A DNA stretch of 64,000 nt from Candidatus Sumerlaeota bacterium (lineage in GTDB: Bacteria > Sumerlaeota > Sumerlaeia > Sumerlaeales > Sumerlaeaceae): the NCBI GenBank assembly GCA_026398535.1, contig JAPLSQ010000076.1:10237-74236 (forward strand), in the 5' to 3' direction. A program made the translations under genes and the position numbers. Below are positions 36,799 through 54,875 of the stretch, in pieces (the first letter of the stretch is position 1; each line of letters starts with the position of its first letter). Under the pieces are notes generated by a model. It saw nothing but the letters and a program-made list of their open reading frames with translations. It was not told where the DNA came from and searched no databases.

Positions 36799-36862
36799 CA
36801 CAGGCTATCCACAAACCTGCCCACTGCCGCTGTGGATTACTCGCTCTCGTAGGAGAAGTATC

Positions 36863-39250
36863 ATGAAGATGACGCCGACAGATGGTATGGAGATGCCTTC
36901 TCGCCCAAGGCGCCGTGAGACAGATTTTAGCGATAACGCGCTCACGGTTCTGAGAAAACGTTATTTCATGAAAAATGAGGCGGGCGAACCGGTTGAGTCG
37001 CCCGAGGAAATGATCTGGCGGGTCGCCTCGAATATTGCCGAGGCGGAGCGTGCCTTTCCCGCCGGTGAGAACCGTTTTGAAGAGTTCTGTGAAAAGTTTT
37101 ATAGTTTGATGGCGTCCTGCGAGTTCATGCCGAATTCCCCGACCCTGATGAATGCTGGTAAAGGTAGACCGCAGCAGTTAAGCGCCTGTTTCGTTATTCC
37201 CGTTGAGGACGCCATCGATTCAATTTTTGACGCAGTAAAGCATGCCGCCATCATCCACAAGACTGGTGGCGGCACCGGATTTGCCTTCTCGCGCCTGAGA
37301 CCCAAAAACGACCGCGTGCGTTCGACCAAAGGCGTCTCAAGCGGCCCTGTTTCCTTCATGAAAGTGTTCAATTCCGCCACTGAGGCCATCAAACAGGGCG
37401 GAACGCGAAGGGGCGCAAACATGGGCATTCTATCTGTCCATCACCCTGATATACTTGAATTTATAGAATGCAAGGCCGACATGACTTCGGTCACCAATTT
37501 CAACATCTCAGTGGCCATCAGCGAAAAGTTCATGGAGGCCGTTCTCAAAAACGAGGAGTACGAACTCGTCAACCCCAAGAACGACCGGGTTGTCGGACGC
37601 CTTAATGCCCGTGAAGTTTTCGACAAGATCGTCGACAACGCTTGGAAAAACGGCGATCCGGGGATCGTGTTCATTGACCGCATCAACCACGACAATCCCA
37701 CACCAGCCTTGGGATTAATGGAAAGCACCAATCCCTGCGGAGAACAGCCCCTGTTGCCTTATGAGGCCTGCAATCTCGGGTCGGTGAACCTCGCGAAAAT
37801 GGTCAGGCTCGTGCCAGGCGCCCCGACAAGCCAAAAAGGCGTTTATGAGGTTGCGTGCGATAGCTATGTCTCGCGAAATCCGCTCCATGACGGCACATGC
37901 TGGGTTATCGATTGGGACAAACTGGCCGAAACCGCGCGCACAGCCATCCGGTTTCTCGATGATGTGATCGAAATGTCGGATTTCCCGTTGCCAGCGATCG
38001 AAAACATCGTCAAGAACGGCAACCGAAAGGTGGGACTGGGAGTGATGGGATTCGCCGATTTGCTTTACATGCTTGGCATCCCTTATAATTGCCAGGAAGC
38101 CGCCGATCTTGGCGAACGCCTGATGGCTTTCATACAAAAAAACGCCTCAAGCGCTTCCGAGGTGTTCGCGAAGGAGCGCGGCGCCTTCGGCAATTTTTCG
38201 GCCTCAGTGTTCGCAGATACCTCGCACCACTGGTATAATGGGGGAAAACCGCGGCGCAACGCGACCGTGACGACCATTGCGCCGACCGGCACCATCTCCA
38301 TCATTTCGGGCTGCTCAAGCGGAATCGAACCGATGTTCGCCATCTGTTTCTACCGCAAGGTGCTTGACGGCGCGGAACTTGTGGATACCCATCCGTTCTT
38401 CGAGCAGGTGGCGCGATCGCGCGGATTCTACAGCGAGGTCATCATGAAGGAAGTTGCCATGCGTGGCTCTGTGCAAGAAGTCAGCGACATCCCCGAGGAC
38501 GTGCGGCGAGTCTTCATCACGGCGCACGATGTCTCGCCCCGATGGCACCTCGAACACCAGGCCGCGTTCCAGCGCTACTGCGAAAACGCTGTCAGCAAAA
38601 CAGTGAATTTCCCAAACCATGCCACACGCGAAGACGTCGCCGAAGTCTACAAACTGGCCTATCAAAAGGGATGTAAAGGCGTAACAATTTACCGCGATGG
38701 GTCTCGTGATGTGCAGGTGCTCAATATTGGTGTCGGAACCAGGAAAAAAGAAGAAGACCCAGGAATGCCCTCAACCATGAATGGCATCATATCACATAAG
38801 AACAATGGAACAGTGCAGGATTATAGCGTGCCGCGTCCAAGCCGAACGGAAACCCATGCGCCACAACCGGGTGTCATGCTATCTGGGTTGACGCTCTCGG
38901 CAGGCGGATGCAAGGTGCCCATACGTGCGGGAAACACAACATTTGGCGCCGGAAACAAACCAGGCGCGCTCATGCGCCGCTACTCAATTGATGTTGACCA
39001 TTCAGAACTTGAACAGATCTCGAGCGTCAGGGATTTCTACTTGTCGGACGGCAATGGGTTGCGCGTGCCGCTTCACCTGATTTCCCAGGAGGGTTCGGCC
39101 GCGCAGGGCGTCAAGTTTGTCATCGAGACAGGAGGTTGGCCTTACTCCGTGGGACAGACCAATCCCAAGTGTCCTGAATGTGGCGCACCCATGGCAATGG
39201 GCGAGGGATGCAGCACATGCTACAGATGTGGTTTTTCAAAATGCGGATAA
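36863..39250 (+). CDS. nrdJ: Adenosylcobalamin-dependent (class II) ribonucleoside-diphosphate reductase.
   Basis: N-terminal ATP-cone-like region, catalytic motifs (SNPCGEQPLLPYEACNLGS, TIAPTGTIS), and a C-terminal Cys-rich zinc-ribbon tail (CPECGAPM...CSTCYRCGFSKCG). ATG at 36863 with AGGAGAAG 5 nt upstream. Confidence 0.9.
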   Translation: MKMTPTDGMEMPSRPRRRETDFSDNALTVLRKRYFMKNEAGEPVESPEEMIWRVASNIAEAERAFPAGENRFEEFCEKFYSLMASCEFMPNSPTLMNAGKGRPQQLSACFVIPVEDAIDSIFDAVKHAAIIHKTGGGTGFAFSRLRPKNDRVRSTKGVSSGPVSFMKVFNSATEAIKQGGTRRGANMGILSVHHPDILEFIECKADMTSVTNFNISVAISEKFMEAVLKNEEYELVNPKNDRVVGRLNAREVFDKIVDNAWKNGDPGIVFIDRINHDNPTPALGLMESTNPCGEQPLLPYEACNLGSVNLAKMVRLVPGAPTSQKGVYEVACDSYVSRNPLHDGTCWVIDWDKLAETARTAIRFLDDVIEMSDFPLPAIENIVKNGNRKVGLGVMGFADLLYMLGIPYNCQEAADLGERLMAFIQKNASSASEVFAKERGAFGNFSASVFADTSHHWYNGGKPRRNATVTTIAPTGTISIISGCSSGIEPMFAICFYRKVLDGAELVDTHPFFEQVARSRGFYSEVIMKEVAMRGSVQEVSDIPEDVRRVFITAHDVSPRWHLEHQAAFQRYCENAVSKTVNFPNHATREDVAEVYKLAYQKGCKGVTIYRDGSRDVQVLNIGVGTRKKEEDPGMPSTMNGIISHKNNGTVQDYSVPRPSRTETHAPQPGVMLSGLTLSAGGCKVPIRAGNTTFGAGNKPGALMRRYSIDVDHSELEQISSVRDFYLSDGNGLRVPLHLISQEGSAAQGVKFVIETGGWPYSVGQTNPKCPECGAPMAMGEGCSTCYRCGFSKCG

Positions 39251-39418: not shown

Positions 39419-41467
39419 TCACTCCATAATCGCCTTCAGCAGGGCTTCTCTGGCGTCGGTGTAGAACTGGATGTCGATCTTCGTGGCCAGTTCGTCGGGC
39501 AACTCGATCAACTGCTTGCGGGCGGTGACGGGGCTTAGCAGCGCCGTGGCGCCCGCCTCGATCGCGTGTTCGGCAATCGTGACGGCATTGTATACGGGAT
39601 CAACCGATCCGCCCACATTGACCGAGCCGATAACCACCAAGCCGCCTTTTATGCTGCGCTTGAGCAGGGCACTGCACAGGGCCAGCAAAACGGCCATGCC
39701 AAGCCCGGCGCCGGATCTTGATGTGTCAAAACCCCGCAACTGCACCGAAAACTCGTGCTGGCGGGGATCGCGGTCCCCGACAAGAACCCTTGCCCGGGAA
39801 TATAGATTCTGCTCGGCGTACCGCACGCATTCGGCAAATGGTTGCGGCGCCGGCCGGTTAAGGATCTTCACCCCTGATCCTGGCCCCTCGTTGATCTCCA
39901 CACGATAAAGGCCCGGATACTCTTCCCCGCCGCCCGGACTTATGGTCCATACCTGGCCGGGTTCCAGCGGATCTCCGCCAATGCTGCTTTCCGTCTGCAA
40001 TTCTGGCGTCGATACGAATTTCTCGACCCCTTCGTCACCAAGCTGGTAGCTGAAATGCGTATTACGGAACTCAGCCGTGCCGATGCGTTTTTGCTGTTCT
40101 TTCACGCGCCGGCGGCATTCCAGTGCCACACGCACGGCCCATTCGAGATCCTCGTCCGATGGCCTCATTTCGGGATTTGGATATAGAAGTTTCAGCAAGC
40201 CGCTCACCGTCTTCTGCGCCGCCGTCGTATCGCGGCCGCTCAAAGCGCCGCCAAACAGGACACGTCCCTGCAATACATTAATACGACTCTGACTTCTAAG
40301 TTGTGACATGCATTCCGACAGGAAGTCGCTGACCATGCCGAAATGGTCCGTCAGCAGATTCTTGGCCATCTTCGGCGCGTCCCACCCGGGACCATATGCG
40401 TGAATTCGATCCATAAAAGCCGTGTCGTTGCGCATCTCCGGAGGCAATGGCCCAAGCAGATGGCCAATCCGCTGCTGATGTTCAACGTCAACTTCAAAGT
40501 TGCCAACCAAAACAATACTGCCATCAGCGCGAATGCTTTCCTTGCCGCGGCTGAATTCGCCGGACTCCATATAGCCTTTCATGATGTTGACGCCATCCTT
40601 CTGATCAAAGGACACGCCGGACACCTCGTCAAATGCCACGACGTCATACTGGCAAACCAAGCCGCGCTGACCACTGGCATTATTGACAAACATCCTGGCC
40701 ACAGTCGTCTTGCCGCCGGAAACCAAATGGGAATAAGGGGACAGTTGCTGGTATGCGTGACTCTTCCCCGTGCCGCGTGGCCCCAGCTCGACCATGTTGT
40801 AGTTGCGCTCAACAAATGGCGTCATGCGCAGCAGGACAAGGTTCCGGGCGCGTTCCGATAGCTGCTCCGGCTCAAGACCCACGCTGCGAATCAGCATGTG
40901 ACGCCATTCGTCGCTGGTAAACATCTCCCGGCCGCGGGCCAGGTCGGCCAGAACGTCACGCTTGGACAATTGAATCTCGCGCAGACTGGCTATGCCGAAC
41001 GCGCGGCCGCCAGACTCCTGGGCAATCGACGCGTCATACGTCAGTTCGACCTCAGCGTAAAAGCCGCCGGTCAGCATCCGCTCGTTGTCGCGAACCAGCT
41101 TGTCTTCTATGCGCACGTCACGAAGGCGCAGACTTGGCAATTCGACGATATAGGTGTCGGTCTTGGCGTCAAGTCGGGCCGAGATGCAGTCGATGATCTT
41201 GACTGATCCCTGTTCCCGCGCCCGGGCCTTGAAAAGCTCTTCTTCGCCGCCTCGCACAGATCGATTCGAAAGCTGTCGCTGGACGATCTCCAGCCCCTCT
41301 TCGATTTCTTTCGGGTCGGTCGTCGCACAGTACCGTCCCAACATGAACTCAACCACATACGTTGGCACCGGGAACTGCTTGGCAAACATGCGCACCAGGT
41401 CCTTGCGCACAATATAGCCCTCAAATGCCTTCGCCGCCAGTTTGTCCAGTTTGTCCAGTTCCATCAT
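39419..41467 (-). CDS. brxL: BREX system Lon protease-like protein BrxL.
   Basis: N-terminus MELDKLDKLAAKAFEGYIVRKDLVRMF..., a P-loop (GPRGTGKSH), and a C-terminal Lon-like protease domain. The ATG at 41467 lies 1 nt after the pglZ stop. Confidence 0.8.
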   Translation of the reverse strand: MMELDKLDKLAAKAFEGYIVRKDLVRMFAKQFPVPTYVVEFMLGRYCATTDPKEIEEGLEIVQRQLSNRSVRGGEEELFKARAREQGSVKIIDCISARLDAKTDTYIVELPSLRLRDVRIEDKLVRDNERMLTGGFYAEVELTYDASIAQESGGRAFGIASLREIQLSKRDVLADLARGREMFTSDEWRHMLIRSVGLEPEQLSERARNLVLLRMTPFVERNYNMVELGPRGTGKSHAYQQLSPYSHLVSGGKTTVARMFVNNASGQRGLVCQYDVVAFDEVSGVSFDQKDGVNIMKGYMESGEFSRGKESIRADGSIVLVGNFEVDVEHQQRIGHLLGPLPPEMRNDTAFMDRIHAYGPGWDAPKMAKNLLTDHFGMVSDFLSECMSQLRSQSRINVLQGRVLFGGALSGRDTTAAQKTVSGLLKLLYPNPEMRPSDEDLEWAVRVALECRRRVKEQQKRIGTAEFRNTHFSYQLGDEGVEKFVSTPELQTESSIGGDPLEPGQVWTISPGGGEEYPGLYRVEINEGPGSGVKILNRPAPQPFAECVRYAEQNLYSRARVLVGDRDPRQHEFSVQLRGFDTSRSGAGLGMAVLLALCSALLKRSIKGGLVVIGSVNVGGSVDPVYNAVTIAEHAIEAGATALLSPVTARKQLIELPDELATKIDIQFYTDAREALLKAIME

Positions 41468-41468
41468 G

Positions 41469-43808
41469 TCACTCCTCGCCGCCAACAGTTGTGGCCAGTT
41501 TGGCCAGCACGTCTCCTTTTGCATTCACGACGACAACAGCCGCCGGATCGCCATGCCGGCCGTCATCGGCAACCACCAATGCCGCCTCGCCTTTGTCATT
41601 AAGCATCTTGCAACCACCCGAAAACGACGAATTCGGATCTGCCGGTTTGGCGCGCAGGTCAGCAAACAAGCCTGTGACAGCCATGATATCCACCTTGATC
41701 CGGCAACGCATTCCTGCCCATTTCAACTCACGAATCCTGGCGGTAACGACGGGCGCGGCGCTGGCTGTCACCTTCAGCATCGGCGTCACACATTCCTGCA
41801 GACTGATTCCGCCATGGGCGTACTCCAAACCCGCTCTGAAAGTGCTGATGCCGGGCGCCACGGCAATCGGGATCATTGGTGACCAATGCCAGGGCAACTC
41901 CAGCAAATCGCTCTTGGCCGTCTGTTTCAGCATCGCGCACCGTCCCCACCGTGTCTCCGCCAGGTAATGCGGCATTTCGGTTTTCGGCAGTCCGCCCGGC
42001 ACAAGAAGCCAGCCGTGATCGGTCACAACCCGCACCCGTTTCCATCCCGCATCTAACAGCGTTTTTACACGCTCGACAATGCCGCGCAGGTTTTCGTCTT
42101 TGCGCCAGGCCAGCTTCCACCCTTCGTGATGTCCATGCTTGTCAAACTCCCCAGCCTCCGTCCATGCCCGCCCTGCCGGGTCGCCCGTTGCGCCCAATGA
42201 CAGCGCCTGAATGCCAATATCTTCAAGCAGTTTGACGAAATCATGATGCTGAAGCGTCTTGCCTGACAAGGCCACTGACGGACGGAATTCTTCACCGGCA
42301 TTTGTGCCAATCAGCAGTTCCGACACCGGCGATACTGCAGGCTTGGATGTCGATGTCACCGTCGGAAATGCGGCCCAATTCCAGTGTGACTCAACCTCGA
42401 AACCATGCGCATTCAGGTGCTGGACCATGCTCTGCCCAAGGTCATATCGAAGTCCATCCGCAAACACCATGCATTCGCCCGATTCAATTGCGGGTTGCGC
42501 CTGCGGACGGGGCAGGGGCGGCGTCTTCATCAGCTCCTGCAACCTTGTCGCTCCGGCTTCCGCCCACGGAACGTACATTGCGCGTATGGCGCCGATCACT
42601 GCCTTGATGTCATGCGAACGCTTCACACAGACCAATGCTTCGAGCACTGCAAGGTCGGCCTGCCAGCCCGTTTGCGCATATTGCCGGGCCATATCCTCGG
42701 CAGTGGCGCCACCCGGATCGCTGGCCGTAATATCGGCCACAACGGCAAGGTGCTTCAGTGCGCATGCCAGCGGTGATTCACCCGCGCGCGCCCACACCGA
42801 TGACCGTCTTCCACCGTGCCGTTCGTCATGTTGCTTGATCTCGGCGCCGGCGGTCCTGCGGTCCCTGACGGCAACCTTTGTCAGTGCGCGGCAAAGGTCA
42901 GCCTCCTCCTTGTCATTTGTCTGCGGCCACACCGAACCATTCTCCATGATAAACAAATCGTCGGGCATCACCTTCCGCATGGCCTTGGGAATGTTTGGGT
43001 ACAAGGCTGGCGACTCGGTAAACCGGCGCCACACGCCAGCCCAGTTGCATTCCTGCTTGCCCAGCGATTCGGCCGCAACGATTTCGCCATCCGTCTGGGG
43101 GTCAAACGAATACTTGTCTTTGCAGATAGCCCGGAATGTCTGCCATTCGGCGCCCTCCCAACGCTTGCGGCTTCCTGCAGGATCATCCAGCCAGACCAGC
43201 ACGTCACGCTCCGGATCCGGCTTCACGATGTCATGAAAATCGGCAGCCTCCAGCCTGCGACCCCGCAGACGGTCGATCGGCGTCGATCCCAGGGCCTCCA
43301 CCGCGCCGCTCATCGCCTCCAGCGTCGCGTTGTCCGTAGCGACATCCAGCCCAAGCCCCCCGTCATTGCTCTGCAGAAATGCCCGGATCGTCCAGTCCTT
43401 TGCATTCAACTGGCTGAAGAATACCCCCCGATACTGGAGTTCGGCCAATGGCTTCAGCTCCTTGGGACATGATTCAACTGCACGAAGGTCAGCCCGGCTG
43501 ACCCCCGGCAGGTACAGAATCGGCACTGCGCTATCCGGCCACTGGGCCTCGTGAAGGGTCCTTGCGATCATGCACCGAAGCCAGATGGCCGGGCCCGACC
43601 TTGCTGACGGGTCATAGGGGCCTAACGTCAGCAACTCCGGCAATTGGTCGCGCAGCCGCGGCAGCAACGCCAGCCACTGCCCCTCCCCGTCTGGCCACAA
43701 AACCGCGGCCGGGGCAACCAGCCCGCTCGAATTGTACTCCGCCGAGTGTTTCAAGGCCAATATCAGCGCCCCAAGGACAGTGGATGCCTGTCGTGCCTGC
43801 AAACTCAC
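41469..43808 (-). CDS. pglZ: BREX-1 alkaline-phosphatase-superfamily protein PglZ.
   Basis: PglZ-domain motifs (RVVTDHGWLLVPGGLPKTEMP, HGGISLQECVTPML) and about 780 aa. The exact start is uncertain by 1-2 codons: my reading of the first two codons does not match the track translation. Confidence 0.85.
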   Translation of the reverse strand: MSLQARQASTVLGALILALKHSAEYNSSGLVAPAAVLWPDGEGQWLALLPRLRDQLPELLTLGPYDPSARSGPAIWLRCMIARTLHEAQWPDSAVPILYLPGVSRADLRAVESCPKELKPLAELQYRGVFFSQLNAKDWTIRAFLQSNDGGLGLDVATDNATLEAMSGAVEALGSTPIDRLRGRRLEAADFHDIVKPDPERDVLVWLDDPAGSRKRWEGAEWQTFRAICKDKYSFDPQTDGEIVAAESLGKQECNWAGVWRRFTESPALYPNIPKAMRKVMPDDLFIMENGSVWPQTNDKEEADLCRALTKVAVRDRRTAGAEIKQHDERHGGRRSSVWARAGESPLACALKHLAVVADITASDPGGATAEDMARQYAQTGWQADLAVLEALVCVKRSHDIKAVIGAIRAMYVPWAEAGATRLQELMKTPPLPRPQAQPAIESGECMVFADGLRYDLGQSMVQHLNAHGFEVESHWNWAAFPTVTSTSKPAVSPVSELLIGTNAGEEFRPSVALSGKTLQHHDFVKLLEDIGIQALSLGATGDPAGRAWTEAGEFDKHGHHEGWKLAWRKDENLRGIVERVKTLLDAGWKRVRVVTDHGWLLVPGGLPKTEMPHYLAETRWGRCAMLKQTAKSDLLELPWHWSPMIPIAVAPGISTFRAGLEYAHGGISLQECVTPMLKVTASAAPVVTARIRELKWAGMRCRIKVDIMAVTGLFADLRAKPADPNSSFSGGCKMLNDKGEAALVVADDGRHGDPAAVVVVNAKGDVLAKLATTVGGEE

Positions 43809-43841
43809 AGCACAACCCCCATATTCCGCCGGCTGCCAGAT

Positions 43842-43919
43842 TGACCCGGTAATTTACCGGGTCGAACGGCTCGCGTCGACAAGCCCGTCATCCTCTGGTG
43901 ACCCGGTAAATTACCGCGT
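43842..43919. promoter_or_regulatory. Two mirrored 21-bp palindromic sites upstream of pglZ (candidate operator or hairpins).
   Basis: GACCCGGTAATTTACCGGGTC (43842-43862) and GACCCGGTAAATTACCGCGTC (43899-43919), 57 bp apart. The second is the reverse complement of the first with one mismatch. They lie 34 and 91 bp upstream of the pglZ start. Confidence 0.5.
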
Positions 43920-44201
43920 CGCGGTTGTGCCTTATGTGTCATTGTCCAAATTCCTGTTCTGTTCCAGAGTAATTCATGGTGCTTGTTTTGGCACACGACA
44001 TCATTTGACAAAGGCGTCCGCCGCGTTGATCAGTACAAGCACAAGTTATCGCCCTGGTCTCTTCGAAGTCCAACGCTCCGCGTCGGATACTCATGTAGGA
44101 GAGCCGGAGCGATCTTTTTTCTCAAAGAACCGTTCGTCTTTGTTTCGTTATTATCGGCAATAACATGCTGCAAATAGGCAACTCGGCATGAACGGGGTCA
44201 T

Positions 44202-44819
44202 TCATGGGATTGCCGGCTTCCCGCAAATCGTATGGATGATCGTGTTCACAAAGGCTTTAAGGTGTGGGCACGCTGCCACAGCCACGCCAAGGTCCTCGCC
44301 TGCCAATATCTTGCCAGCATCCACGGTCTTTTTATAGTCTTTGCGCGTATCGCCTTGCCGGTAGGCCTGCTTGAGTCTATATGCAGGAGGATTGCCATGG
44401 TTTACGTCTTCGGGGTTCCCAAATGGTTTTGCCATGTTGGATTTGGAAAGCACTTTGACTTTGTCCCAGTATGGCAGCAGCCATGCCTCGAAGTCATGCT
44501 GGGCTGCATGAGGGTGAAACCGCGGCTCGCCTCCTGCCCAAAAGTTCATCTTTTGTATGGCATCGTTGCCATCGTCAAAGTCTTGATTGCCTGTGTAAAC
44601 ATCAGTCAGGGCAATAACGTGATCGAAAGCGTCTGCACCGGAAAGGAGAGTTTCCACCTTCCGCTTTAACTTGTCACCTTTCGGCACGCGCCCATCTTCT
44701 ACCACCGGTTTCAGCTTTGGCATATCATCTTTCAAGTGGTTTTCCAGGAAACGGCGCAAAATGGGCATGAATGCCTTTTCTGTTTTTCCCTCAACAATGA
44801 TGGCTATTCGACAGCTCAT
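44202..44819 (-). CDS. DUF4276-like small protein with a TOPRIM-like N-terminal motif; the second gene of the cassette embedded in BREX.
   Basis: N-terminus MSCRIAIIVEGKTEKAFMPILRRF (VEGxTE as in OLD-family TOPRIM). ATG at 44819 overlaps the ATPase stop (ATGA). About 205 aa. DUF4276 is assigned from memory of the family's hallmark N-terminus and is not verified. Confidence 0.5.
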   Translation of the reverse strand: MSCRIAIIVEGKTEKAFMPILRRFLENHLKDDMPKLKPVVEDGRVPKGDKLKRKVETLLSGADAFDHVIALTDVYTGNQDFDDGNDAIQKMNFWAGGEPRFHPHAAQHDFEAWLLPYWDKVKVLSKSNMAKPFGNPEDVNHGNPPAYRLKQAYRQGDTRKDYKKTVDAGKILAGEDLGVAVAACPHLKAFVNTIIHTICGKPAIP

Positions 44820-46054
44820 TCTGTGCGCCCACCCAGTTGGCCCATGCGCCACACATCGCCCAGGGTGTATTCATCCAACCACTTTTCCGCGTCGAATGAA
44901 TCACCCCAGCGGGCTGATGCATTGCCGTCTTTCCCAGAATCCAGCACCAACAATTCCTCGGGTTTCAGAAAACCAACCAAACGATCCGAGTGTGTTGCCA
45001 CGATCAGCTGCGTGCGCAGGGATGCCTCGCGCAACAACTCCGCAAGAATGCGTAGAAGCTCCGGATGCAAGCTGACCTCGGGTTCATCGATCAGCGTCAC
45101 CTCGCCCAATCCAGGACTATACAGCAGGGTCACAAGCCACAAGAACCGCAACATCCCGTCGGACAATTGGTTCATGAACAATGCTGCAGGGTAGCGGCGA
45201 TCTTTCCATCCAAGCCCGATAATTCCTTGGGCGAGTGGTGGAAACTCGAATTTCTCGAATTCCGGGAAACCCGCCCGGATGGCATCTTCCACCGCTTGGA
45301 AGAGGTCTGACATTTGCTCCTTCATCGTGTACAAGCAAGATAGCAAATCCTCGCCATTGGGTCCCGGCAGGTGGGCGGGGCGTAGGCTCTGTGGCATCCG
45401 GATCGGTGCGTTCAGACGCAGATCAAGTAGGCTGTAATGGGTTAGCGATGCGATCCTCCCGCGCATCACACCCAATAGTGGAATGTTCATCGGTGCTTGA
45501 GATAGAGCAGTCTCTGCGGGGTTGTATTTCAGAGACGATTCACCAGGCGCGGCATACCCCGAAACCCCCGTTAACGCCAATGCTTCAACGGTGGTAGGTA
45601 GCACACTCTTTTGGGTATCGGGATCAAAATAGCGGACATCGCCCAACGTTGACTGGATCAACGCACCCCGTTGCTGTCCATCTTGATTCAGCTGCAGGAC
45701 TTCCCCGGAAATCAAATATCCTCCGTATCCCATATGAGCAAGCCTTATGGAATAATTCGTGCTCCACCCTGGATCCCCTGGAATGAGCACTTCAAACATT
45801 ACATCGCCCATCGAACCAATGGTTCTGCATGCCCAGATGCCGCCATTGGCTTTCATGGTTGTTTCAAGGGCCCCTGCAGCGGACGCAGCCGTGATTTTTA
45901 AAGCGTCAAGCACGGTTGTTTTCCCAACGCCATTACTACCGACCATCACCGTTAGCGGACGCAATTCCACGTCAAAACTGTGCAGTCGCCGAAAATTGCG
46001 AACACGCAAGGTGCTGATGATTAGGTGTTGGCCATCTGGCTGATTTATGGTCAT
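44816..46054 (-). CDS. ABC/SMC-like ATPase (AAA_21-type); first gene of the cassette embedded in BREX.
   Basis: Walker A (GSNGVGKTT), ABC signature (LSDGMLRFLWL), Walker B (LIDEPEVSLHPE), and H-loop (ATHSDRL). AAGGAG RBS 9 nt upstream of the ATG at 46054. It starts 16 bp after the pglX stop. Confidence 0.7.
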   Translation of the reverse strand: MTINQPDGQHLIISTLRVRNFRRLHSFDVELRPLTVMVGSNGVGKTTVLDALKITAASAAGALETTMKANGGIWACRTIGSMGDVMFEVLIPGDPGWSTNYSIRLAHMGYGGYLISGEVLQLNQDGQQRGALIQSTLGDVRYFDPDTQKSVLPTTVEALALTGVSGYAAPGESSLKYNPAETALSQAPMNIPLLGVMRGRIASLTHYSLLDLRLNAPIRMPQSLRPAHLPGPNGEDLLSCLYTMKEQMSDLFQAVEDAIRAGFPEFEKFEFPPLAQGIIGLGWKDRRYPAALFMNQLSDGMLRFLWLVTLLYSPGLGEVTLIDEPEVSLHPELLRILAELLREASLRTQLIVATHSDRLVGFLKPEELLVLDSGKDGNASARWGDSFDAEKWLDEYTLGDVWRMGQLGGRTE

Positions 46055-46070
46055 TGCCGGTTCTCCTTTA

Positions 46071-49000
46071 TTACCGCTTCCGGGCCGCGCGTTTTTCGTC
46101 CAGCGTCAGATGCTCGTCATTATGACGTTCGCCGTGGAATGTGCCGCGGGCGTCGTGGAACCAGGGAAACTGCTCTCGCGCACGGCCGCCCTGGGGTTCC
46201 TTGCCGCGATCCTTGTCCCACTTGATGTTTGGCCGCTTGCGCAACACGTCCTCCACCATGAAAGGACGGATGTTCATCCTCACGCCGTCGTTCAGGTCGG
46301 GATGCCAGCCGATGGCCTGCTCATGGATAGGTTTCCACCGCACAAATACGTCGTAGGGCGGTTCACCTTCCAAAATCAGGGACAATTTGTGTTGAAGCGC
46401 GCGTGCGGCCTCACGCCGGGCATCCGCGCCGCTTTCATTGTGCTTGACCGCGTCATCCTGGCGTTTGATCCAGTCGCCCAGATAAGTGTACGTCAGGCGC
46501 TCGAGCAGTTTGTGGTCGAGCTTGTGGTAGTTGACCAGCGCGCTGAATCCGTCGCGCCGGCGTCCGTCCCAGATGTGCCAGATGAATGGCCTGTTATGGA
46601 ACAACTTGCAGTGCTGGCCGAAGAAGCCGTCGCGCAGCCAATCATCAAGGGTGTTCGCGCCAGCGGCGGCAAGCAGTTCGGCCTTCTTCGCTGGCGTCCA
46701 TTCCTTGCCCAAGGCCGCCTTCAGCATTGCCTCAACACGCTCCGCCGCCGGCTCCTCGCCGCGCACCGACGGGACGCACACGATGCCGTCCGCATCCGCC
46801 AGCTTCTCCAGCCCGTCCGGGCCGAGTGTTGGGCAATCCGGGAAACTCGAGCCCGTCTGACGCGGCCACTGATAGCCGAGTAACCGCGCCACCGCCACAT
46901 GCAACGGCCGGTCTGAACCTTTCGGATGCCCGTTGAACAACCATTGCGTCGGATCGCTGGAAAACGGCTTCGGCAATCCATGCGGATATTTCTCCGCCGC
47001 AACCTTCTGCCAGTACGCCAAGTCGAAGGGAACTTTGACCAATGTGGCGTTTGTCACTTTCAGTGATTGATCGATAGCGCGAACATCTTTGTTGTATTCC
47101 GGCGAAGTGCAGTAACACCAGATCGCGAGAAGGTCGCATTGATTTCGTGGCACGATCACGGCGCAGTTCGTGTCGAATTTCTCGCCTGTGAAAAGGGACA
47201 CCGGGAGACTGCACATTTGCCTGACCACAACACCCCATTTCCCCCAAGCTTCTTCACCTCGGAGGTATGCTTGCCCCGAGGCTATTGCTTTCTGAAGGTC
47301 CTCATTCCACCAGAGCACAAGTTCCCTTCCGCCAAACGGGATTGTGTCATCAATGGTGCTTTGCCAGAACTCCCATTGGTTCGAACCGCAAACCTCCCAA
47401 AAGAAACGGCCGTAGTGGGGAAAATCAGCAGGTGAAATCCCCTGGAGTCCGGAAGCGTATTTGCTCAACAAAGGAAGGTTGCTTGGCTCTTCAAAGGCAA
47501 TCCTCGCATCCGGGTTTTTCATCTGACCTGACTGGCCGAGACGATTCACGGAGTCACTGCATAGAGAAGTTGCCTTCGCGGCGATGCTGCACTGACTACT
47601 GACGTCTAACCCAGCAAACTTATGTTCTGGTTTAGCCTTCGATCTCGAAAGTGCCACAATGCTGACGTTCACAACTTCGCCCCCGATGGTTTCAAAAGCG
47701 CGAGCACCAAGCCTCGCAACAAGATCCCATTCATACTGGCGAAGAAGCCGTTTTCGCAAATTCATGTAAGTACCGAGGAAAAGCCAATTTTGAGGCGTGA
47801 CCAGCGCAGCATTTCCGCTCGGAGCACAAAAATCTAAACAACGCTCAACAAAACAAGTGGCGAGGTCAGCCTTCGCCTCGTGGTGTTCTCGGTCGCAGTA
47901 GTCTTTCAGGACAGCTTCTTGTTTGCTCCGTGTTAGATACGGCACATTCGTCGCCACCAGCGTGAACTGCCCCGCAAGAATCTCCGCCGCCTTGGCCAGA
48001 CCACTCGCGGTCACGGCCATTTCATGCGCGGCATTGTCCCTGGTCTCCCGCGCCAGCGCCTTTTCCAGCAACGGCTGGAGTTCATGGAACGCGGCCACCA
48101 GCAAATCGCCCTCGCCGGCGCGCGGGTTGATCAGGCTGCCCAGCGCCGCCGCCTTCTGGAACAACCCGTAAAGCTGCTCCATGCCTCGTATAAGCTTTTC
48201 GTTGCCGCCGGCAATCTTCAGCCAGTCCGCTTCCTTCGCATTCGGCGCGAGACCGGAGCAGGCCAGGTTCATCGCCGGCAGCGCACAGTGGCCCACGCGA
48301 CGCCAGGCGGCAAGCGCCAGATTAAACGCGGCAATCTGCGTGCAACGCGGGTCTATCTCCAAACCAAACAGGTTGTCGCGGATGACCGCCGACACCGCCG
48401 CCGATTCCCCCAGCTTTTCCTCCGCCATGCGCAACGCCAACAACCGCTCGAACATAGCCACCACAAAATGCCCGCTGCCCATGCACGGGTCGAGACACTT
48501 TAGTTCCTTCGCAGTTTTCGGCCAGCCGTCAAACGACCCTGCCGCAGGCGTCCATTTTCCGTCTTCGCCCTTCATGAACCGCAAATAGTTCCACGACACA
48601 CCCGGCAATGACACAGCATGGCGCACATCTTCCTCCGAATTGGCCTTCTCGGCCAGCTTCGGACTTGCCGCCAACACCTTGCCGGCCCGCCAGGCGCCAA
48701 GCGTGTTATCAAGCAAAAAGTCCACCATGTAATTCTCTGTAAAAAGCTGCGTGACAGAACATATCTCGTCAGCGCCGATCTTCTTTCCGGACTTGTTGAC
48801 GTCATCCTTCTTTTTTGCCTGCCAGAACTGGTAGACCCAGCCCAGACTGTCGCCAGCAATGAAGACATCGCGGGCCAGACCGGCCAGAAGGTCTTTGAAA
48901 GTTTTCACATGGTTGGGAGCGAAGGTGACCTGAAGGACCGGGTCATCGGGCCGAAACACCTGCGGCAACATGTTGGCGGCATAACGGCCGGCAAGTATCC

Positions 49001-49382
49001 AGCGGTCGGCGGCGCCCTCCATTTCGGCAAGATCGTCACATTCATCAAGCGTGATGGCAACTTTGTGAACGGGATGCATGAGCAGATGGTTCTCGGCAAG
49101 AAACCGGGCAAAAAGCATGCGGTGCCAATGCTCGTAGGCGCATTCTTCGACAAGATGGCCTATGTCCTGGCGTCCATTGTGCAACTGATCGCCGAGCTGG
49201 CGGGCGTGGGCGCGAAGGCGGGTGCGCAATTCCCGGGCATCGGGCGTCATGTGGCGATAGGGTTCCGCTTCATGAACGGCAAGCCCCTCGATGGCAGCCT
49301 TGGCGCCTTCCTCGGCAACCGCGCGGGCCGACAGAACAACCTTCTCAAGTGCCTTGCGCAGCTCTGGATTTAGAATGACCAT
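46071..49382 (-). CDS. pglX: BREX-1 N6-adenine DNA methyltransferase PglX.
   Basis: 1103 aa, motif IV (LVATNVPYL), and a SAM-binding region (LFGLEIDPRCTQIAAFNLALAAW). It lies between brxC and pglZ. Confidence 0.85.
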   Translation of the reverse strand: MVILNPELRKALEKVVLSARAVAEEGAKAAIEGLAVHEAEPYRHMTPDARELRTRLRAHARQLGDQLHNGRQDIGHLVEECAYEHWHRMLFARFLAENHLLMHPVHKVAITLDECDDLAEMEGAADRWILAGRYAANMLPQVFRPDDPVLQVTFAPNHVKTFKDLLAGLARDVFIAGDSLGWVYQFWQAKKKDDVNKSGKKIGADEICSVTQLFTENYMVDFLLDNTLGAWRAGKVLAASPKLAEKANSEEDVRHAVSLPGVSWNYLRFMKGEDGKWTPAAGSFDGWPKTAKELKCLDPCMGSGHFVVAMFERLLALRMAEEKLGESAAVSAVIRDNLFGLEIDPRCTQIAAFNLALAAWRRVGHCALPAMNLACSGLAPNAKEADWLKIAGGNEKLIRGMEQLYGLFQKAAALGSLINPRAGEGDLLVAAFHELQPLLEKALARETRDNAAHEMAVTASGLAKAAEILAGQFTLVATNVPYLTRSKQEAVLKDYCDREHHEAKADLATCFVERCLDFCAPSGNAALVTPQNWLFLGTYMNLRKRLLRQYEWDLVARLGARAFETIGGEVVNVSIVALSRSKAKPEHKFAGLDVSSQCSIAAKATSLCSDSVNRLGQSGQMKNPDARIAFEEPSNLPLLSKYASGLQGISPADFPHYGRFFWEVCGSNQWEFWQSTIDDTIPFGGRELVLWWNEDLQKAIASGQAYLRGEEAWGKWGVVVRQMCSLPVSLFTGEKFDTNCAVIVPRNQCDLLAIWCYCTSPEYNKDVRAIDQSLKVTNATLVKVPFDLAYWQKVAAEKYPHGLPKPFSSDPTQWLFNGHPKGSDRPLHVAVARLLGYQWPRQTGSSFPDCPTLGPDGLEKLADADGIVCVPSVRGEEPAAERVEAMLKAALGKEWTPAKKAELLAAAGANTLDDWLRDGFFGQHCKLFHNRPFIWHIWDGRRRDGFSALVNYHKLDHKLLERLTYTYLGDWIKRQDDAVKHNESGADARREAARALQHKLSLILEGEPPYDVFVRWKPIHEQAIGWHPDLNDGVRMNIRPFMVEDVLRKRPNIKWDKDRGKEPQGGRAREQFPWFHDARGTFHGERHNDEHLTLDEKRAARKR

Positions 49383-49392
49383 GCCATTGACC

Positions 49393-52300
49393 TCATTGAA
49401 TGATCACCGGTCCGTCTTTCAGGGCTTCTTCAATACGGCCACGAACTTCTACAATCCACTGGTCAAGTTCCGTGGTATTGTGCAGGGTCGCGGATGGCGC
49501 CTTCATCGACCTGGCCTTGGGCTCGAACAGTTTGGCTGCTTCAACCTTGGCAGCGTGAAATCGCTGTGACAGCGAATCGCGGCGATCGCGCCATTGAGCA
49601 AGGTTCATTTTGTCAAGCGATGCAAGAAGTTCCGCCTTGCTGGAAACGTTGATGTCAGGAACCCCGGTCAGGCCAGGCGGCGTCAGGATGGCGTGCCGCT
49701 GCTCCGGTGTCAGGCGTTGCCAGCTCTGGTCGTTGCCAAGTTCACCAAGCAACTTGTTGAACTGGGTATCGAAGGTGTCGTGAAGATTAACCAATGCGGC
49801 CCGCAGTTCCTTGGCGACGGTCGCGGCAACTGGCGTCACCGGGTCGGGATCCTCCAGCAATTGGCGTCGGTCCATGATGGCATCGGCCTGCTGCCGGATG
49901 TCATCGATGCCAGGCAGACCGATAGCATGGCGCATTAGGCCCTGCAGGGCGTTCCATGCCGGCAGCGCCTTCTTTATGGCATCTGCCGTCTTCGCCCAGG
50001 CAGTCGCCTCTTTGCCAAGCTGGTCCGACTTGTCAAACACCGCCACAAGCTGTTCGTTGCCGGAAAAATGCATGAGTTCCTGAATGTGCATTGAACTTGG
50101 CGGCGGCGGCTGTGGTGGGTCGCCGCCGGCTGCCTTGGCCAGCTCAAGAAGCTTGTTGAGATAGGCGTCAAGTGACGACAATTCCTCCCCTGGCTTGCAC
50201 GGGATGCCGCCATCGGTAATCAGCTTGCGGACTGCCAGCTTCTGGATCGTGGTGACTGTGACTTTCTCGCAACGGAAATCGGCCTGGCGCAGCTTCCCGC
50301 GATCCTGTTGCTTGGGATCGAACGCCTGACCGCCAAGCCTGGCACTGACATGCCCGACCGCGAGAAGCACATACAGGGCGCCCTCGATCGCGTCAGCGGG
50401 CCAGCCATACGGCGGCGCATCGAGCTGGCGGCGGACATCAGAGCCTTTGTTGCCGCTGCCGATGGCCTTGATGACTTCGGCACAGACCGGGTGATTATCC
50501 GGTTCCCCCTTGTGACCAACTGCCTCAAGGGCGTCGCCAGAGCCTTTCCTGGCACGTTCAACGACCTTCTCCCATCCAGGATGGTCGGCATGGTCAAACT
50601 CCGGGTAAAGACGAATCAGAGCATTACCAGCAGCCGCTTCTACGTTCTCGGTCAGAGTCATACCGCCGGCTATCTCCTGGCCGCCGCTCTGGACAACCCT
50701 GGCGTTGCCGACGATTTCGCTGAGCAGCATGGTGAGGCGTCCGTCCGCTTCATCCTTGCGTGTTACCATCGCGTTGCGTGCTTCCAAGCCTTCGGGCGTG
50801 GCCGGCACGCCGCGCGTTTGCAGCGTTTCCTCCGCGGCTTTGAAACTGCAAATCGCATTTTTCAATGCGTCGGCCGAGCGGCGTGGCATGAAAACATGAA
50901 CGGTCGCATTGTCGTTGCCCGAAGCACGAGCATCGTTGTCAAAAGCCTTCTCGCTTTCCGACCAGCCATCGCGAACCCAGACGGGGACGCCGGTAGATGA
51001 TTTCAAAGGCGGCTCACCGCCAAAAGACAGGCTGATCTGACGGGGAGCCCTGCATTTGCCTTGGGTGGGGCGGACAGCGCCAAGATATTCCCGTGCCTGA
51101 CGCTGGATATGGTCGCTGCGTAAATCCGCCACTCGCCGATCGTCATTGTTCAGCTTGGTCAGATGATTTCGGTAATCGGTATCCCAGGCGCTGCTTTCAC
51201 GCGTCTGCAACCGATACTCGTTGTCGACCTGCATGAGCTTGCCCGCATTGACCAGTTCCTGTAGCAGGACCGGGATCTTCTTGCGAAGACTCGCGCTGCC
51301 AGCGGTCAGATCGTCAACGAGCAGATCTGCAAGTGTGTCGCAATTGGCGCGAACGCCCAGGTCAACACCGGCATCCCGGGGTAATTGACCGATAAGAAAA
51401 ATCAGCGCGCAAAGCCTGGCCTTGAGAACATCGCTTGCCTTATCAGCCTTGCCGAGTTCCTTTATGGTGTCATGAATCTCGCGCGGTAATTTGCCCGTCT
51501 GCAACATGTCGTTCACTTTTTGATCAAAAACGAAGTCAGCCGGGACCACCGTGCCAAGCGGCTCGTTGGCTGTGGAGCGCGCTGCCTCGTGGACTATCCG
51601 GATCTGCGACCGGAGCTGGCCCGTTGTGCCGGCAACGTCCACCGCACGCAATACTCTTTCCCAAAAACGGCGGCGCACGGGAAGCAACGGATAATCGGGT
51701 ACAAGGGTCCGCTTGTCTTCCGTGCGCGGTTCGATTTTCGTGCCGGCGAGATGACGGTCGATCTCACCCGAGTGCCGCGATAGAATGTCGTCGATATCGG
51801 AAATCTTGTCAGGCTTTTTCTGCAGGATCACTTTGCGGATGACGGTTTCTACGTCTTCATCGCTTAACTGCACAGTGATAGGAAAACGGTCGCGCAACTT
51901 TTGTAATTGAGGCGTATGCGTCAGGGCTGTCTGGCCAGTGGCCACGAACAGCAATTGCCCCTCGAAATGCTTGCAACATGCCTCCGTGATCTCCTGGACC
52001 TGGTTGGTCCGCTGAGAACTGTCAGCGATGTACTGCTGTACTTCGTCCAGGGCAATCAGCGTGCACGGAAACTTGCCATCCTTGCTGATGGCCAGGCGGA
52101 TGGCCTTCAGCATGTCGTCAGTCGTCACGTCCTGAATGTTTGGGAACTGGGTTTTCAATAAGGACCGTGCATCGGCCGGGCTTTTGGCAAAGTCCATTTG
52201 GTCGCACAAGGCCTGGCCCAGGACCGATGAAACATACATGTTCTGAAGCTCGGTTTCCCAGCGTTTGTCCTTCTCCTCCACGGCTTTCTTGACAGCCTGC

Positions 52301-52836
52301 AGCTTCCCTTCGTCACGCAACCACATGACGAACCGGGCCAACGGGTACTGCTCCGGCAACCCGGCCGACCGAAAAACAATGCCAAGCAACGCCATGCGCA
52401 CGTTGTCAGCCGCGCCGGCGCCAAGCGTGCCAGCCGCGGCATGCAGGCCGCCGTGACGCTTGCCGGCTGTCGATAATTCTTTCAAGTCATCCTTGACATC
52501 TCGTGGCAAATGAGCCAGACCGCGCGCCGTGACGCCATCACTGAATGACGTGTCAACCCAGAGATACCGAAGAGCTTTGACAAAGTGTGACTTGCCAGAA
52601 CCAAAAAAGCCGCTGACCCAGACACCAGGCTGTTCCGGCTTGTCCAGGTTGCGCAAAAATGCGCCCAAAACCTGGTCCATGCCTCGCTGATATTGACCGT
52701 CGCATACGAATATCTCGAGTTCGTAGCGCAACGTTTTCATCTCCTCCGCCGTCCCCGCATCATTGACGACTGCAACACCATTGTTCAGCAATTCCTGCTC
52801 GGCAGGATCCTTGGCAAAAACATCACGGTTTTTCAT
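49393..52836 (-). CDS. brxC: BREX ATPase BrxC/PglY.
   Basis: 1147 aa with P-loop VSGFFGSGKSHF and a DEVQQY Walker B. 4-bp overlap with brxB. Confidence 0.85.
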   Translation of the reverse strand: MKNRDVFAKDPAEQELLNNGVAVVNDAGTAEEMKTLRYELEIFVCDGQYQRGMDQVLGAFLRNLDKPEQPGVWVSGFFGSGKSHFVKALRYLWVDTSFSDGVTARGLAHLPRDVKDDLKELSTAGKRHGGLHAAAGTLGAGAADNVRMALLGIVFRSAGLPEQYPLARFVMWLRDEGKLQAVKKAVEEKDKRWETELQNMYVSSVLGQALCDQMDFAKSPADARSLLKTQFPNIQDVTTDDMLKAIRLAISKDGKFPCTLIALDEVQQYIADSSQRTNQVQEITEACCKHFEGQLLFVATGQTALTHTPQLQKLRDRFPITVQLSDEDVETVIRKVILQKKPDKISDIDDILSRHSGEIDRHLAGTKIEPRTEDKRTLVPDYPLLPVRRRFWERVLRAVDVAGTTGQLRSQIRIVHEAARSTANEPLGTVVPADFVFDQKVNDMLQTGKLPREIHDTIKELGKADKASDVLKARLCALIFLIGQLPRDAGVDLGVRANCDTLADLLVDDLTAGSASLRKKIPVLLQELVNAGKLMQVDNEYRLQTRESSAWDTDYRNHLTKLNNDDRRVADLRSDHIQRQAREYLGAVRPTQGKCRAPRQISLSFGGEPPLKSSTGVPVWVRDGWSESEKAFDNDARASGNDNATVHVFMPRRSADALKNAICSFKAAEETLQTRGVPATPEGLEARNAMVTRKDEADGRLTMLLSEIVGNARVVQSGGQEIAGGMTLTENVEAAAGNALIRLYPEFDHADHPGWEKVVERARKGSGDALEAVGHKGEPDNHPVCAEVIKAIGSGNKGSDVRRQLDAPPYGWPADAIEGALYVLLAVGHVSARLGGQAFDPKQQDRGKLRQADFRCEKVTVTTIQKLAVRKLITDGGIPCKPGEELSSLDAYLNKLLELAKAAGGDPPQPPPPSSMHIQELMHFSGNEQLVAVFDKSDQLGKEATAWAKTADAIKKALPAWNALQGLMRHAIGLPGIDDIRQQADAIMDRRQLLEDPDPVTPVAATVAKELRAALVNLHDTFDTQFNKLLGELGNDQSWQRLTPEQRHAILTPPGLTGVPDINVSSKAELLASLDKMNLAQWRDRRDSLSQRFHAAKVEAAKLFEPKARSMKAPSATLHNTTELDQWIVEVRGRIEEALKDGPVIIQ

Positions 52837-53393
52837 TTCTCGTGAGCCTCTTCGTGCTCGGTTATCGGGATGACATGATAATTCCAGCCGTCACGAGCAT
52901 CCAGCAACCGGTAATTGTTGTTCTCGTATTCGCCCGGGAAGAAAACGACAAGGCGGCCCCGGATCTTGGAGGCGGCGGCGGAGATAAGATCTGACACACG
53001 CACAAACGGAAACAGAGCTCCGGTGCCGGTCAATCCCGCGATGGTATCGTCATTGGCCGCATCGCTGGTCAGCACATCGGCAAGAAGCTCGACGCAATGA
53101 AACGCAAACTCGGGATATGCCAATTCAAGGTCTTCCGGTGACTCGAAATATGCCTCCTTGTATTCTTGGCCAGCCAGCCACTGGGCAAATACATCTGTCA
53201 TGTCACATGTGATCCAACTGTGTCCGGAATTGCGCGCGGCAATTTCAAATTCCGTTATCTCCGCGCGAAGACGGCGTTCTTCGGTCTTGTCATAGACCAC
53301 CATCCAAATCTTCTGCGGACCCGCCAGCGTGCGGTCCCAGGGCAATGACACCAGACGCTCAAAATTGCGCGCAAGCCGTTCAACCCTGCTCAT
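52833..53393 (-). CDS. brxB: BREX protein BrxB (DUF1788).
   Basis: About 186 aa in the conserved position between brxA and brxC. ATG at 53393; the track start at 53396 is TTG. Confidence 0.65.
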   Translation of the reverse strand: MSRVERLARNFERLVSLPWDRTLAGPQKIWMVVYDKTEERRLRAEITEFEIAARNSGHSWITCDMTDVFAQWLAGQEYKEAYFESPEDLELAYPEFAFHCVELLADVLTSDAANDDTIAGLTGTGALFPFVRVSDLISAAASKIRGRLVVFFPGEYENNNYRLLDARDGWNYHVIPITEHEEAHEK

Positions 53394-54802: not shown

Positions 54803-54875
54803 TGACCCGTCAAGGACTCGAACCTTGAACCAACAGATTAAGAGTCTGCTGCTCTACCAATTGAGCTAACGGGCC
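54803..54875 (-). tRNA. tRNA-Lys (anticodon CUU).
   Basis: Cloverleaf derived by hand: acceptor GGCCCGU/ACGGGUC, anticodon stem GCAGA/UCUGU, loop CUCUUAA, T-loop GGUUCGAGUCC. No encoded CCA. Confidence 0.9.

Follow-up and report, generated by a model that had tools for sequence, protein, structure and literature searches.

The closest described relative of the gene pair studied here is HEC-01, a candidate defence system in PADLOC. [quoted passage not shown] 2024, bioRxiv 10.1101/2024.01.29.577857). HEC-01 was defined on cases embedded in Hma operons; that such pairs are embedded in BREX, DISARM, RM and Hma operons has been proposed before in print (10.1101/2024.01.29.577857), and the pair is also common outside defence loci. 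Payne et al. predicted HEC-01 to be a defence system, reported a conserved metal-binding site in HEC-01B and observed no protection against the phages that they assayed (10.1101/2024.01.29.577857). In another report, which gives little detail, E. coli B with a HEC-01 representative was protected from one or more of the phages T4, T5 and T7. The published support for a defence role is thus thin and conflicting, one negative and one positive assay, and both assayed representatives differ from the protein described here.

Other known systems resemble this architecture. Defence by MADS requires the related MAD3/MAD4 pair, an ATPase with a DUF4276 protein within a methylation-based defence operon, and a deletion of mad5 is possible only when mad2 or mad3 is deleted as well. 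In PARIS, the partner of the AriA ATPase is AriB, a DUF4435 protein, and PARIS-type ATPases sense Ocr, an anti-BREX protein. In the OLD family and in GajA of Gabija, a single polypeptide contains both the ATPase and the TOPRIM. AbiL (AbiLi/AbiLii) and RloA/RloB are pairs of an ATPase and an RloB-type TOPRIM-like protein.

The window, a 64,000-nucleotide stretch of a Candidatus Sumerlaeota contig, contains a type 1 BREX operon on the minus strand at 39419-54168, with the order brxA-brxB-brxC-pglX-cassette-pglZ-brxL. All six BREX genes were found with PADLOC models (E-values from 1e-70 to 0) and are co-oriented: brxA (53380-54168), brxB (52833-53396), brxC (49393-52836), pglX (46071-49382), pglZ (41469-43808) and brxL (39419-41524). 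The operon is flanked by CysRS and ribonucleotide reductase genes, and a tRNA lies beside it at 54803-54875.

Two further minus-strand genes occupy the slot between pglX and pglZ, and the ORFs and the sequence place them and their overlap where the initial annotation had put them and confirm the ribosome-binding site that it described. The first (44816-46054) encodes a 412-residue ABC ATPase from an ATG start. It begins 16 nt past pglX, in the orientation of the BREX genes, and is preceded by an AAGGAG ribosome-binding site at 46063-46068 (minus strand), 8 nt 5' of the ATG and just past the pglX stop codon. The second (44202-44819) encodes a 205-residue DUF4276 protein with a predicted TOPRIM core and a helical domain. 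The stop of the first gene and the start of the second overlap in an ATGA at 44816-44819 on the minus strand, which in the sequence reads as translational coupling. The longest form of the small ORF starts from a GTG at 44852 and ends at 44202; the start of the homologues, MKIAIIVEG, favours the ATG at 44819 and the 205-residue product. In the region of the cassette the GC content is 0.51-0.55 (44000-46100), lower than the 0.59-0.63 of pglZ and of pglX at its 3' end.

Judged by its sequences, the pair belongs to HEC-01 and is a new example of that system, not a new kind of system. The assignment is based on matches to profiles of the PADLOC HMM library together with the co-oriented adjacency of the genes. 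For the ATPase, HEC-01A models take ranks 1 to 7, with PDLC04175 at 5.5e-59 and PDLC04177 (4.4e-48) covering residues 13-410 of 412. For the small protein, the HEC-01B model PDLC04188 matches residues 4-196 of 205 at 2.9e-17; six of its seven PADLOC matches are to HEC-01B, and none other is convincing. The initial annotation could assign the pair to no named system, a view that these profile searches overturn. In Pfam, the ATPase matches AAA_21 (3.7e-28) and AAA_15 (4e-23), and the small protein matches DUF4276 over its full length (1.2e-30). The window pair differs from the Hma-embedded cases on which HEC-01 was defined in that it lies in the BREX operon of an uncultivated bacterium. It is also divergent: the closest homologues found are 52% identical for the ATPase, which carries a lineage-specific 20-residue loop at 154-173, and 63% identical for the small protein.

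None of the other systems fits the pair as well. The small protein has no match to DUF4435 or AriB, which excludes PARIS. The PADLOC mad3 model aligns with the ATPase over its full length (9.2e-22). However, with the NCBIfam MAD3 equivalog the ATPase reaches 75.6 bits, far below the cutoff of 420. No mad4 match was obtained for the small protein, mad6-8 are missing and the surrounding genes are those of BREX. Gabija and class 1-2 OLD were rejected because the two proteins are encoded by separate ORFs, without a UvrD-like GajB partner and with pglX and pglZ as neighbours. Matches of the small protein to RloB (5.2e-5; 24.0 bits, below the Pfam gathering score of 31.5) and AbiLii (0.0024) are weak, and the protein is clearly DUF4276 instead. 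Menshen was also considered and rejected.

The ATPase contains a Walker A motif (GSNGVGKT, 39-46), a Q-loop glutamine (Q186), a signature (LSDGM, 297-301), a Walker B motif (LIDEPE, 321-326), a D-loop (SLHP, 328-331) and an H-loop (ATHS, 353-356). The motif residues are invariant in an alignment of 120 homologues, which together with the Pfam matches confirms the first protein as an ABC-type ATPase. In its predicted structure (pLDDT 89.9) residues 85-151 form a beta-rich insert, unlike the insertions of AriA of PARIS (IS1, IS2), which are helical. According to Foldseek, the closest folds are PtuA, OLD (Ts OLD) and Rad50. The predicted structure of the small protein (pLDDT 90) combines a TOPRIM fold with the OLD helical domain. 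It resembles the TOPRIM nuclease regions of OLD, GajA and AriB, and in the fold comparison its nearest structural relatives are all defence nucleases. A profile search against PDB sequences found no solved relative; only the fold comparison succeeded. The fold and the separate ORFs agree with the split OLD-like ATPase/nuclease architecture with a TOPRIM-like small protein that had been proposed at the outset.

The two genes are strictly paired. In 80 out of 80 genomes, which are species-level and come from many phyla according to their record titles, the ATPase gene lies directly upstream of the DUF4276 gene, and the genes abut or overlap. The small protein of the window is uniformly 54-61% identical to its counterparts in these genomes. 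This uniformity across phyla, and a cassette GC below that of the flanking BREX genes, fit horizontal transfer. The subfamily is patchy, with 499 matches, at about 55-60% identity across phyla, among 185,579 species genomes (GTDB representatives, which do not include the window's own genome; the best match is 60% identical). Plasmids, phages and IMG/VR contigs gave no matches, a difference from PARIS and OLD. We estimate a probability of roughly 60% that the pair is a self-contained defence module of the HEC-01 type, which was acquired horizontally into the pglX-pglZ slot and is co-transcribed with BREX.

In about 70 genomes the immediate and second neighbours of the pair are mostly housekeeping genes, so that there is no enrichment in defence islands. 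Across the 80 genomes the pair almost always stands as a solitary insertion between such genes. The initial annotation had stated that a wide occurrence outside defence islands, combined with a known non-defence role, would speak against its proposal. Since the pair stands mostly alone amid housekeeping genes, the first half of this is what we found, but no non-defence role is known. It is unlikely, in our opinion, that the pair acts as an addiction cassette, in the way of a toxin-antitoxin system, to stabilise itself or its island, or is a housekeeping pair that processes DNA in the manner of SMC, RecF or Rad50. The solitary setting and the lack of matches on phages and plasmids favour such a role, as do the negative assay of Payne et al. 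(10.1101/2024.01.29.577857), the resemblance of the ATPase to the heads of Rad50, RecF and SMC and the Pfam name of AAA_21, "putative AbiEii toxin". However, the patchy spread fits an accessory, horizontally moving gene and not a housekeeping one, the embedding in Hma and BREX operons recurs, one defence assay was positive, and the structural neighbours of the nuclease all act in defence.

The position of the cassette raises a second alternative, that the pair is an integrated BREX accessory and no independent system. It would then either contribute a nuclease/ATPase arm or serve as a guard dependent on the methylation or the proteins of BREX. The cassette follows pglX by 16 nt in the same orientation, and a pattern scan found no terminator. 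An unrelated BREX locus (L068; its PglZ is 23% identical) carries the ATPase/DUF4276 pair in the same slot. The requirement for an ATPase/DUF4276 pair in the methylase operon of MADS, where the loss of mad5 calls for the loss of mad2 or mad3, and the sensing of anti-BREX Ocr by PARIS-type ATPases point in the same direction. To our knowledge, no nuclease has been identified in BREX, which we also count in favour of an integrated accessory. Still, we find this reading quite improbable. BREX genes are undetectable within 10 kb of the pair in 78 of the 80 genome loci, most of them amid housekeeping genes, the nearest BREX relative found is without the pair, and the pair moves independently of BREX. 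The low score against the MAD3 equivalog and the missing mad4 match weaken the parallel with MADS. As far as we know, the type 1 BREX systems studied experimentally function without such a pair.

A scan of metagenomes with PglZ gave a single short related BREX locus (L090), the nearest relative found, which lacks the pair. Its slot holds a different ORF of 220 residues, too little for a presence/absence series but in agreement with the earlier description of the slot as variable. For the pair itself, the proposal that embedding in this slot is typical does not hold, as L068 is the only one of the 80 genomes with the pair in BREX, and elsewhere it is nearly always alone.

The cassette is separated from pglZ by a 393-bp gap (43809-44201), which has a lower GC content than the flanking BREX DNA. 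All other junctions of the operon are overlaps or gaps of at most 16 nt, so that this is indeed the only large gap, as first described, but it is not empty. On the plus strand, antisense to the operon, 44048-44113 is an orphan match to the Rfam family RF03075 (DUF3800-VIII RNA). The match is full length, and its 60.2 bits exceed the gathering score of 40.2. It is unlikely that the RNA belongs to the cassette. It is missing in 20 loci scanned with Rfam, its core pattern is missing in all 86 loci other than copies of the window's locus, and neither an ATPase gene nor a DUF4276 gene occurs on the viral contigs that bear the RNA; it was therefore rejected as a partner of the pair. As a weak test for a DUF3800 gene, intact or decayed to a pseudogene, a tblastn search of the window with one DUF3800 protein gave no match. 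The gap also contains two palindromes of 21-23 nt, GACCCGGTAA(T)TTACCGGGTC, at 43842-43921. They are 57 nt apart, 34-113 nt 5' of the pglZ start, and unique to this place in the 64 kb, where 0.48 chance matches are expected. They may be an operator or an internal regulatory site; the pattern scan of the gap found no terminator or sigma-70 promoter above the shuffled expectation. It is conceivable, though we give it little credence, that the RNA and the palindromes form a local unit that regulates pglZ-brxL and the cassette, and that the pair is either a guard that fires on a BREX inhibitor such as an Ocr-like DNA mimic or the missing nuclease arm of BREX.

The candidate catalytic residues of the small protein are E10, E14, D73, D109/E111 and K164. 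E10, the TOPRIM glutamate after beta1, is invariant in all three alignments, and G43, the TOPRIM glycine after beta2, is invariant in 120 close homologues. D73 lies at the end of beta3, where the protein has LTDVY in place of the expected TOPRIM DxD, and no member examined retains the second aspartate (the motif reads TDVY, IDVV, VDFH or similar). This reduction to a single aspartate throughout the clade, which sets the protein apart from OLD and GajA, means that catalysis by the small protein is not assured. The spacing of E10 and E14 (+4) is the same as that of E400 and E404 in Bp OLD, D109-x-E111 stands at the start of the helix that follows beta4, like T506-x-E508 in OLD, and the invariant K164 was likened to the catalytic lysine of OLD; for E14, D109-x-E111 and K164 the correspondence is by sequence position and secondary structure. 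That the missing aspartate leaves a catalytically dead adaptor or regulator, with the effector elsewhere (e.g. ATP depletion or recruitment of a host nuclease), is very unlikely, as homologues down to 28% identity keep E10, E14, D73, E111 and K164 without exception or in at least 90% of cases, the single mutants D455A and D457A of Bp OLD each retain activity, D457 touches metal A through water molecules only, and HEC-01B has a conserved metal-binding site (10.1101/2024.01.29.577857).

PARIS, OLD and Gabija suggest by analogy how a self-contained defence module might act. The two proteins may form a complex in which an ATPase oligomer would act as the sensor and keep the nuclease inactive. The ATP-dependent state would change on a cue from the phage, which may be an anti-restriction or anti-BREX protein, and the nuclease would then be freed or activated and would cut nucleic acid, either DNA or tRNA. 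Phage replication would then be stopped, probably with a cost to the cell, i.e. an abortive outcome.

As a natural case of the published "guilt-by-embedding" pattern the locus is clean: between pglX and pglZ, a complete type 1 BREX operon from an uncultivated phylum carries a catalogued candidate pair. L068 is an independent BREX locus with the pair in the same position. Because the experimental support for HEC-01 is thin, conflicting and without a mechanism, this survey is a useful basis for experiments. The strict pairing, the solo distribution, the absence from mobile-element collections, the single-aspartate TOPRIM site and the beta-rich insert of the ATPase are starting points for such work.

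By PADLOC profiles, the minus strand carries a complete type 1 BREX operon with all genes in one orientation: brxA (53380-54168), brxB (52833-53396), brxC (49393-52836), pglX (46071-49382), pglZ (41469-43808) and brxL (39419-41524). The cassette occupies 44202-46054 on the same strand, in the slot between pglX and pglZ. Its first gene encodes a 412-aa ATPase (44816-46054) and starts with an ATG, 8 nt after an AAGGAG motif (46063-46068) located directly past the pglX stop codon (46071-46073). The second ORF, for the small DUF4276 protein, has its stop end at 44202, and its longest form runs from a GTG at 44852. Translation probably begins with the ATG at 44819, giving 205 aa, because homologues open with "MKIAIIVEG", two to three residues ahead of the conserved isoleucines. 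Given this start, the two genes are translationally coupled, the start overlapping the ATPase stop in an ATGA. All junctions in the operon are overlaps or at most 16 nt, with the sole exception of the 393 nt from the DUF4276 stop to the pglZ start. In all details checked, the initial annotation had described the ORFs, the ATGA, the AAGGAG, the BREX setting and the large gap correctly.

The publicly annotated identical small protein is a "DUF4276 family protein [Candidatus Sumerlaeota bacterium]", and the identical arrangement is seen again on short contigs of several sequencing runs. The GC content of the cassette and the gap is 0.51-0.55, compared with 0.59-0.63 in the adjoining pglZ and pglX 3' end. 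Inside pglX, a stretch at 47000-47900 has a GC of about 0.52 against about 0.60 on both sides, and may reflect a swap of the methyltransferase's target-recognition region. The BREX island is flanked by a cysteinyl-tRNA synthetase gene (55362-56819, minus) with adjacent tRNA (54803-54875, minus) on one side and by the gene for the ribonucleotide reductase large subunit (36752-39250, plus) on the other, a layout that would fit a putative tRNA-adjacent genomic island. The stretch 56990-57062 (minus) also belongs to this layout. The tRNA gene at 54803-54875 lies about 630 bp upstream of brxA, and the stretch between them has a GC of 0.46-0.49.

The interpretation in the initial annotation, an OLD-like ATPase/nuclease defence pair, was largely right, but it assigned the pair to no named system, and here both proteins match HEC-01, a PADLOC candidate system. 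The best model for the ATPase is HEC-01A (5.5e-59), a second HEC-01A model matches residues 13-410 (4.4e-48), and the top seven ranks are all HEC-01A. The small protein matches HEC-01B over residues 4-196 (2.9e-17); six of its seven PADLOC matches are HEC-01B, the remaining one being a weak AbiLii. Payne et al. (bioRxiv 10.1101/2024.01.29.577857) count HEC-01 among their "Hma-embedded candidates" and characterise it as an ABC ATPase paired with a TOPRIM-like protein whose metal-binding site is in common with the Burkholderia OLD nuclease (Bp OLD); it gave no protection against their coliphage panel. In a later study, one HEC-01 representative, picked at random from cold-seep metagenomes, is reported to have protected E. 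coli B against one or more of T4, T5 and T7. Experimental support for defence by HEC-01 is thin. The locus adds a divergent new member to this catalogued candidate family, and embedding in BREX is already described as a class of context.

A word-indexed search returned 2,617 relatives of the small protein, the best 120 of them all at 56% to 63% identity, and an exhaustive search of 1.84 billion cluster representatives gave 426 clusters at E <= 0.001 and 38 at E <= 1e-30. The narrow subfamily is encoded in 499 genomes of a species-representative collection. Throughout the best 80 loci the small protein is 54-61% identical to that of the window, with hosts in Cyanobacteria, Desulfobacterota, Acidobacteriota, Chloroflexi, Armatimonadota, Planctomycetota, Omnitrophota, Nitrospinota, Synergistota, Fibrobacterota, Methylococcaceae and others. 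The pairing is strict: the ATPase gene is directly upstream of the DUF4276 gene, abutting or overlapping, in 80/80 loci, and therefore the pair behaves as one horizontally moving unit. It was undetected among 72,556 plasmids, 50,697 phage genomes and 2.9 million IMG/VR contigs.

The first and second neighbours of the pair (140 and 130 proteins, about 70 loci) were compared with Pfam and PADLOC. Their Pfam families are heterogeneous and for the most part housekeeping, e.g. ABC transporters, histidine kinases, gamma-glutamyltranspeptidase, glycogen debranching enzymes, carbamoyl-phosphate synthase and hydrogenase. Any one PADLOC model matched at most 7/140 first and 5/130 second neighbours, generic ABC-ATPase models being the commonest. 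This solo setting among housekeeping genes, together with one negative assay, would suit a selfish or non-defence module, a reading that we consider unlikely.

That the pair is a true BREX accessory has a precedent in MADS, where resistance requires mad3 and mad4, and mad5 can be deleted only together with mad2 or mad3; it is nevertheless rather improbable, as the pair is independent of BREX in nearly all genomes. Only one of the best 80 loci has BREX genes within 10 kb. In this Omnitrophota MAG (L068) the pair (8862-10621) lies between a 1686-aa PglX-type methylase (3566-8623) and an 845-aa PglZ (10692-13226). The latter is 23% identical to the PglZ of the window and the BREX operons are only distantly related, so the same slot was occupied independently. 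The slot had been proposed to be variable, and this was confirmed by the closest BREX relative retrieved, L090 (PglX 57%, PglZ 59% identical), which holds a different 220-aa ORF there (L090:916-1578, plus). This ORF has no Pfam match and is a further uncharacterised embedded gene.

The gap between the cassette and pglZ (43809-44201) is not empty. A full-length match to the DUF3800-VIII RNA (RF03075; 60.2 bits, gathering score 40.2) occupies 44048-44113 of the plus strand and so runs antisense to the operon; its hairpin folds as well on one strand as on the other. According to Weinberg et al., DUF3800 RNA motifs associate with DUF3800 genes and their function is unknown. A tblastn search with one DUF3800 protein brought up no such gene in the window. 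In IMG/VR, one contig (L100) has the RNA just 5' of a DUF3800 gene, and several more carry an IS30-type transposase (HTH_38 plus rve) downstream of it. The RNA does not accompany the pair: Rfam gave no match in the 20 loci scanned, the core pattern is missing from the 86 loci other than copies of the window locus, and eleven IMG/VR contigs with the pattern (ten Rfam-confirmed) lack both the ATPase and the DUF4276 gene. The copy in the window is regarded as an orphan, which may have been left behind by a previous occupant of the slot.

The gap also contains two near-identical palindromes of 21-23 nt (43842-43864 and 43899-43921), 57 nt apart and 34-113 nt upstream of the pglZ start. Their sequence is GACCCGGTAATTTACCGGGTC and a near copy, written also as the perfect palindrome GACCCGGTAA-T-TTACCGGGTC. 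They are unique in the 64-kb window, where 0.48 matches are expected by chance. A search of the gap for terminators and sigma-70-type promoters gave nothing convincing; the palindromes may be a candidate operator for an internal pglZ-brxL promoter.

The ATPase matches AAA_21 (3.7e-28) and AAA_15 (4e-23) in Pfam. Its motifs are all invariant among 120 homologues: Walker A GSNGVGKT (39-46), Q-loop Q186, signature LSDGM (297-301), Walker B LIDEPE (321-326), D-loop SLHP (328-331) and H-loop ATHS (353-356). AlphaFold models the protein with confidence (pLDDT 89.9). Among solved structures the model comes closest to PtuA (Septu, retron Ec78/Eco7), Thermus OLD and Rad50, at TM-scores around 0.45, which on the model places the ATPase in the ABC/SMC-like class in use by many defence systems. 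Between Walker A and the signature, the model has an insert rich in beta strands, which fall between residues 85 and 151, and no long coiled coil. A 20-residue loop (154-173) is lineage-specific and of low model confidence.

DUF4276 matches the small protein over its whole length (1.2e-30), RloB matches under the Pfam gathering score (5.2e-5), and the OLD-like TOPRIM match is marginal (E 0.1). DUF4276 has been assigned independently to the TOPRIM superfamily; it occurs as Mad4 of MADS and as an effector domain of some Menshen NsnC proteins. A search of solved structures by sequence detected no relative; fold comparison found the C-terminal region of Bp OLD (6nk8, 10.5, 159 residues aligned), the uncharacterised Pyrococcus protein 2p62 (10.4), Thermus OLD (8.3), GajA (8.2), AriB (7.3) and the retron Ec67 TOPRIM (6.3), supporting the TOPRIM/OLD-like nature first proposed from the sequence.

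The catalytic-type residues are conserved. Across all three alignments, two of close homologues (24 and 120) and one of 35 representatives with identities as low as 28%, E10, G11 and E14 are invariant; D73, E111, E137, Y162 and K164 are at least 90% conserved, also in the divergent set, and G43 is invariant among close homologues. In Bp OLD, metal A is bound by the TOPRIM glutamate E400 and a DxD (D455, D457), metal B by E404, T506 and E508, where the first helix of the helical domain begins, and K562 is the catalytic lysine. Judged by position, the conserved residues would correspond to this site: E10/E14 have the spacing of E400/E404, D73 closes beta3, D109-x-E111 opens the helix past beta4 like T506-x-E508, and K164 is in the helical half. 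The sole departure is the DxD, replaced by a single aspartate clade-wide (TDVY, IDVV, VDFH and similar). This loss would fit a non-catalytic nuclease, which we regard as highly improbable given the conservation of the other residues. The site is instead a putative variant, not a dead one, since D457 of Bp OLD reaches metal A through water only and single mutants kept activity.

We therefore favour, with a probability of roughly 0.6, a module that acts autonomously, with the ATPase as sensor and the TOPRIM protein as effector, on the design of OLD, PARIS and Gabija. By analogy with PARIS and OLD, the two proteins would form a stable A:B complex, a phage cue would activate it, and cleavage of nucleic acid would lead to arrest. 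Co-transcription of the pair with BREX would mean layered defence, and a role of the pair as a guard against anti-BREX proteins is an attractive, if speculative, possibility. The weight of the locus as a discovery is modest; it is chiefly useful as a clean case in which to ask if HEC-01 has any defensive effect and if its embedding matters functionally.
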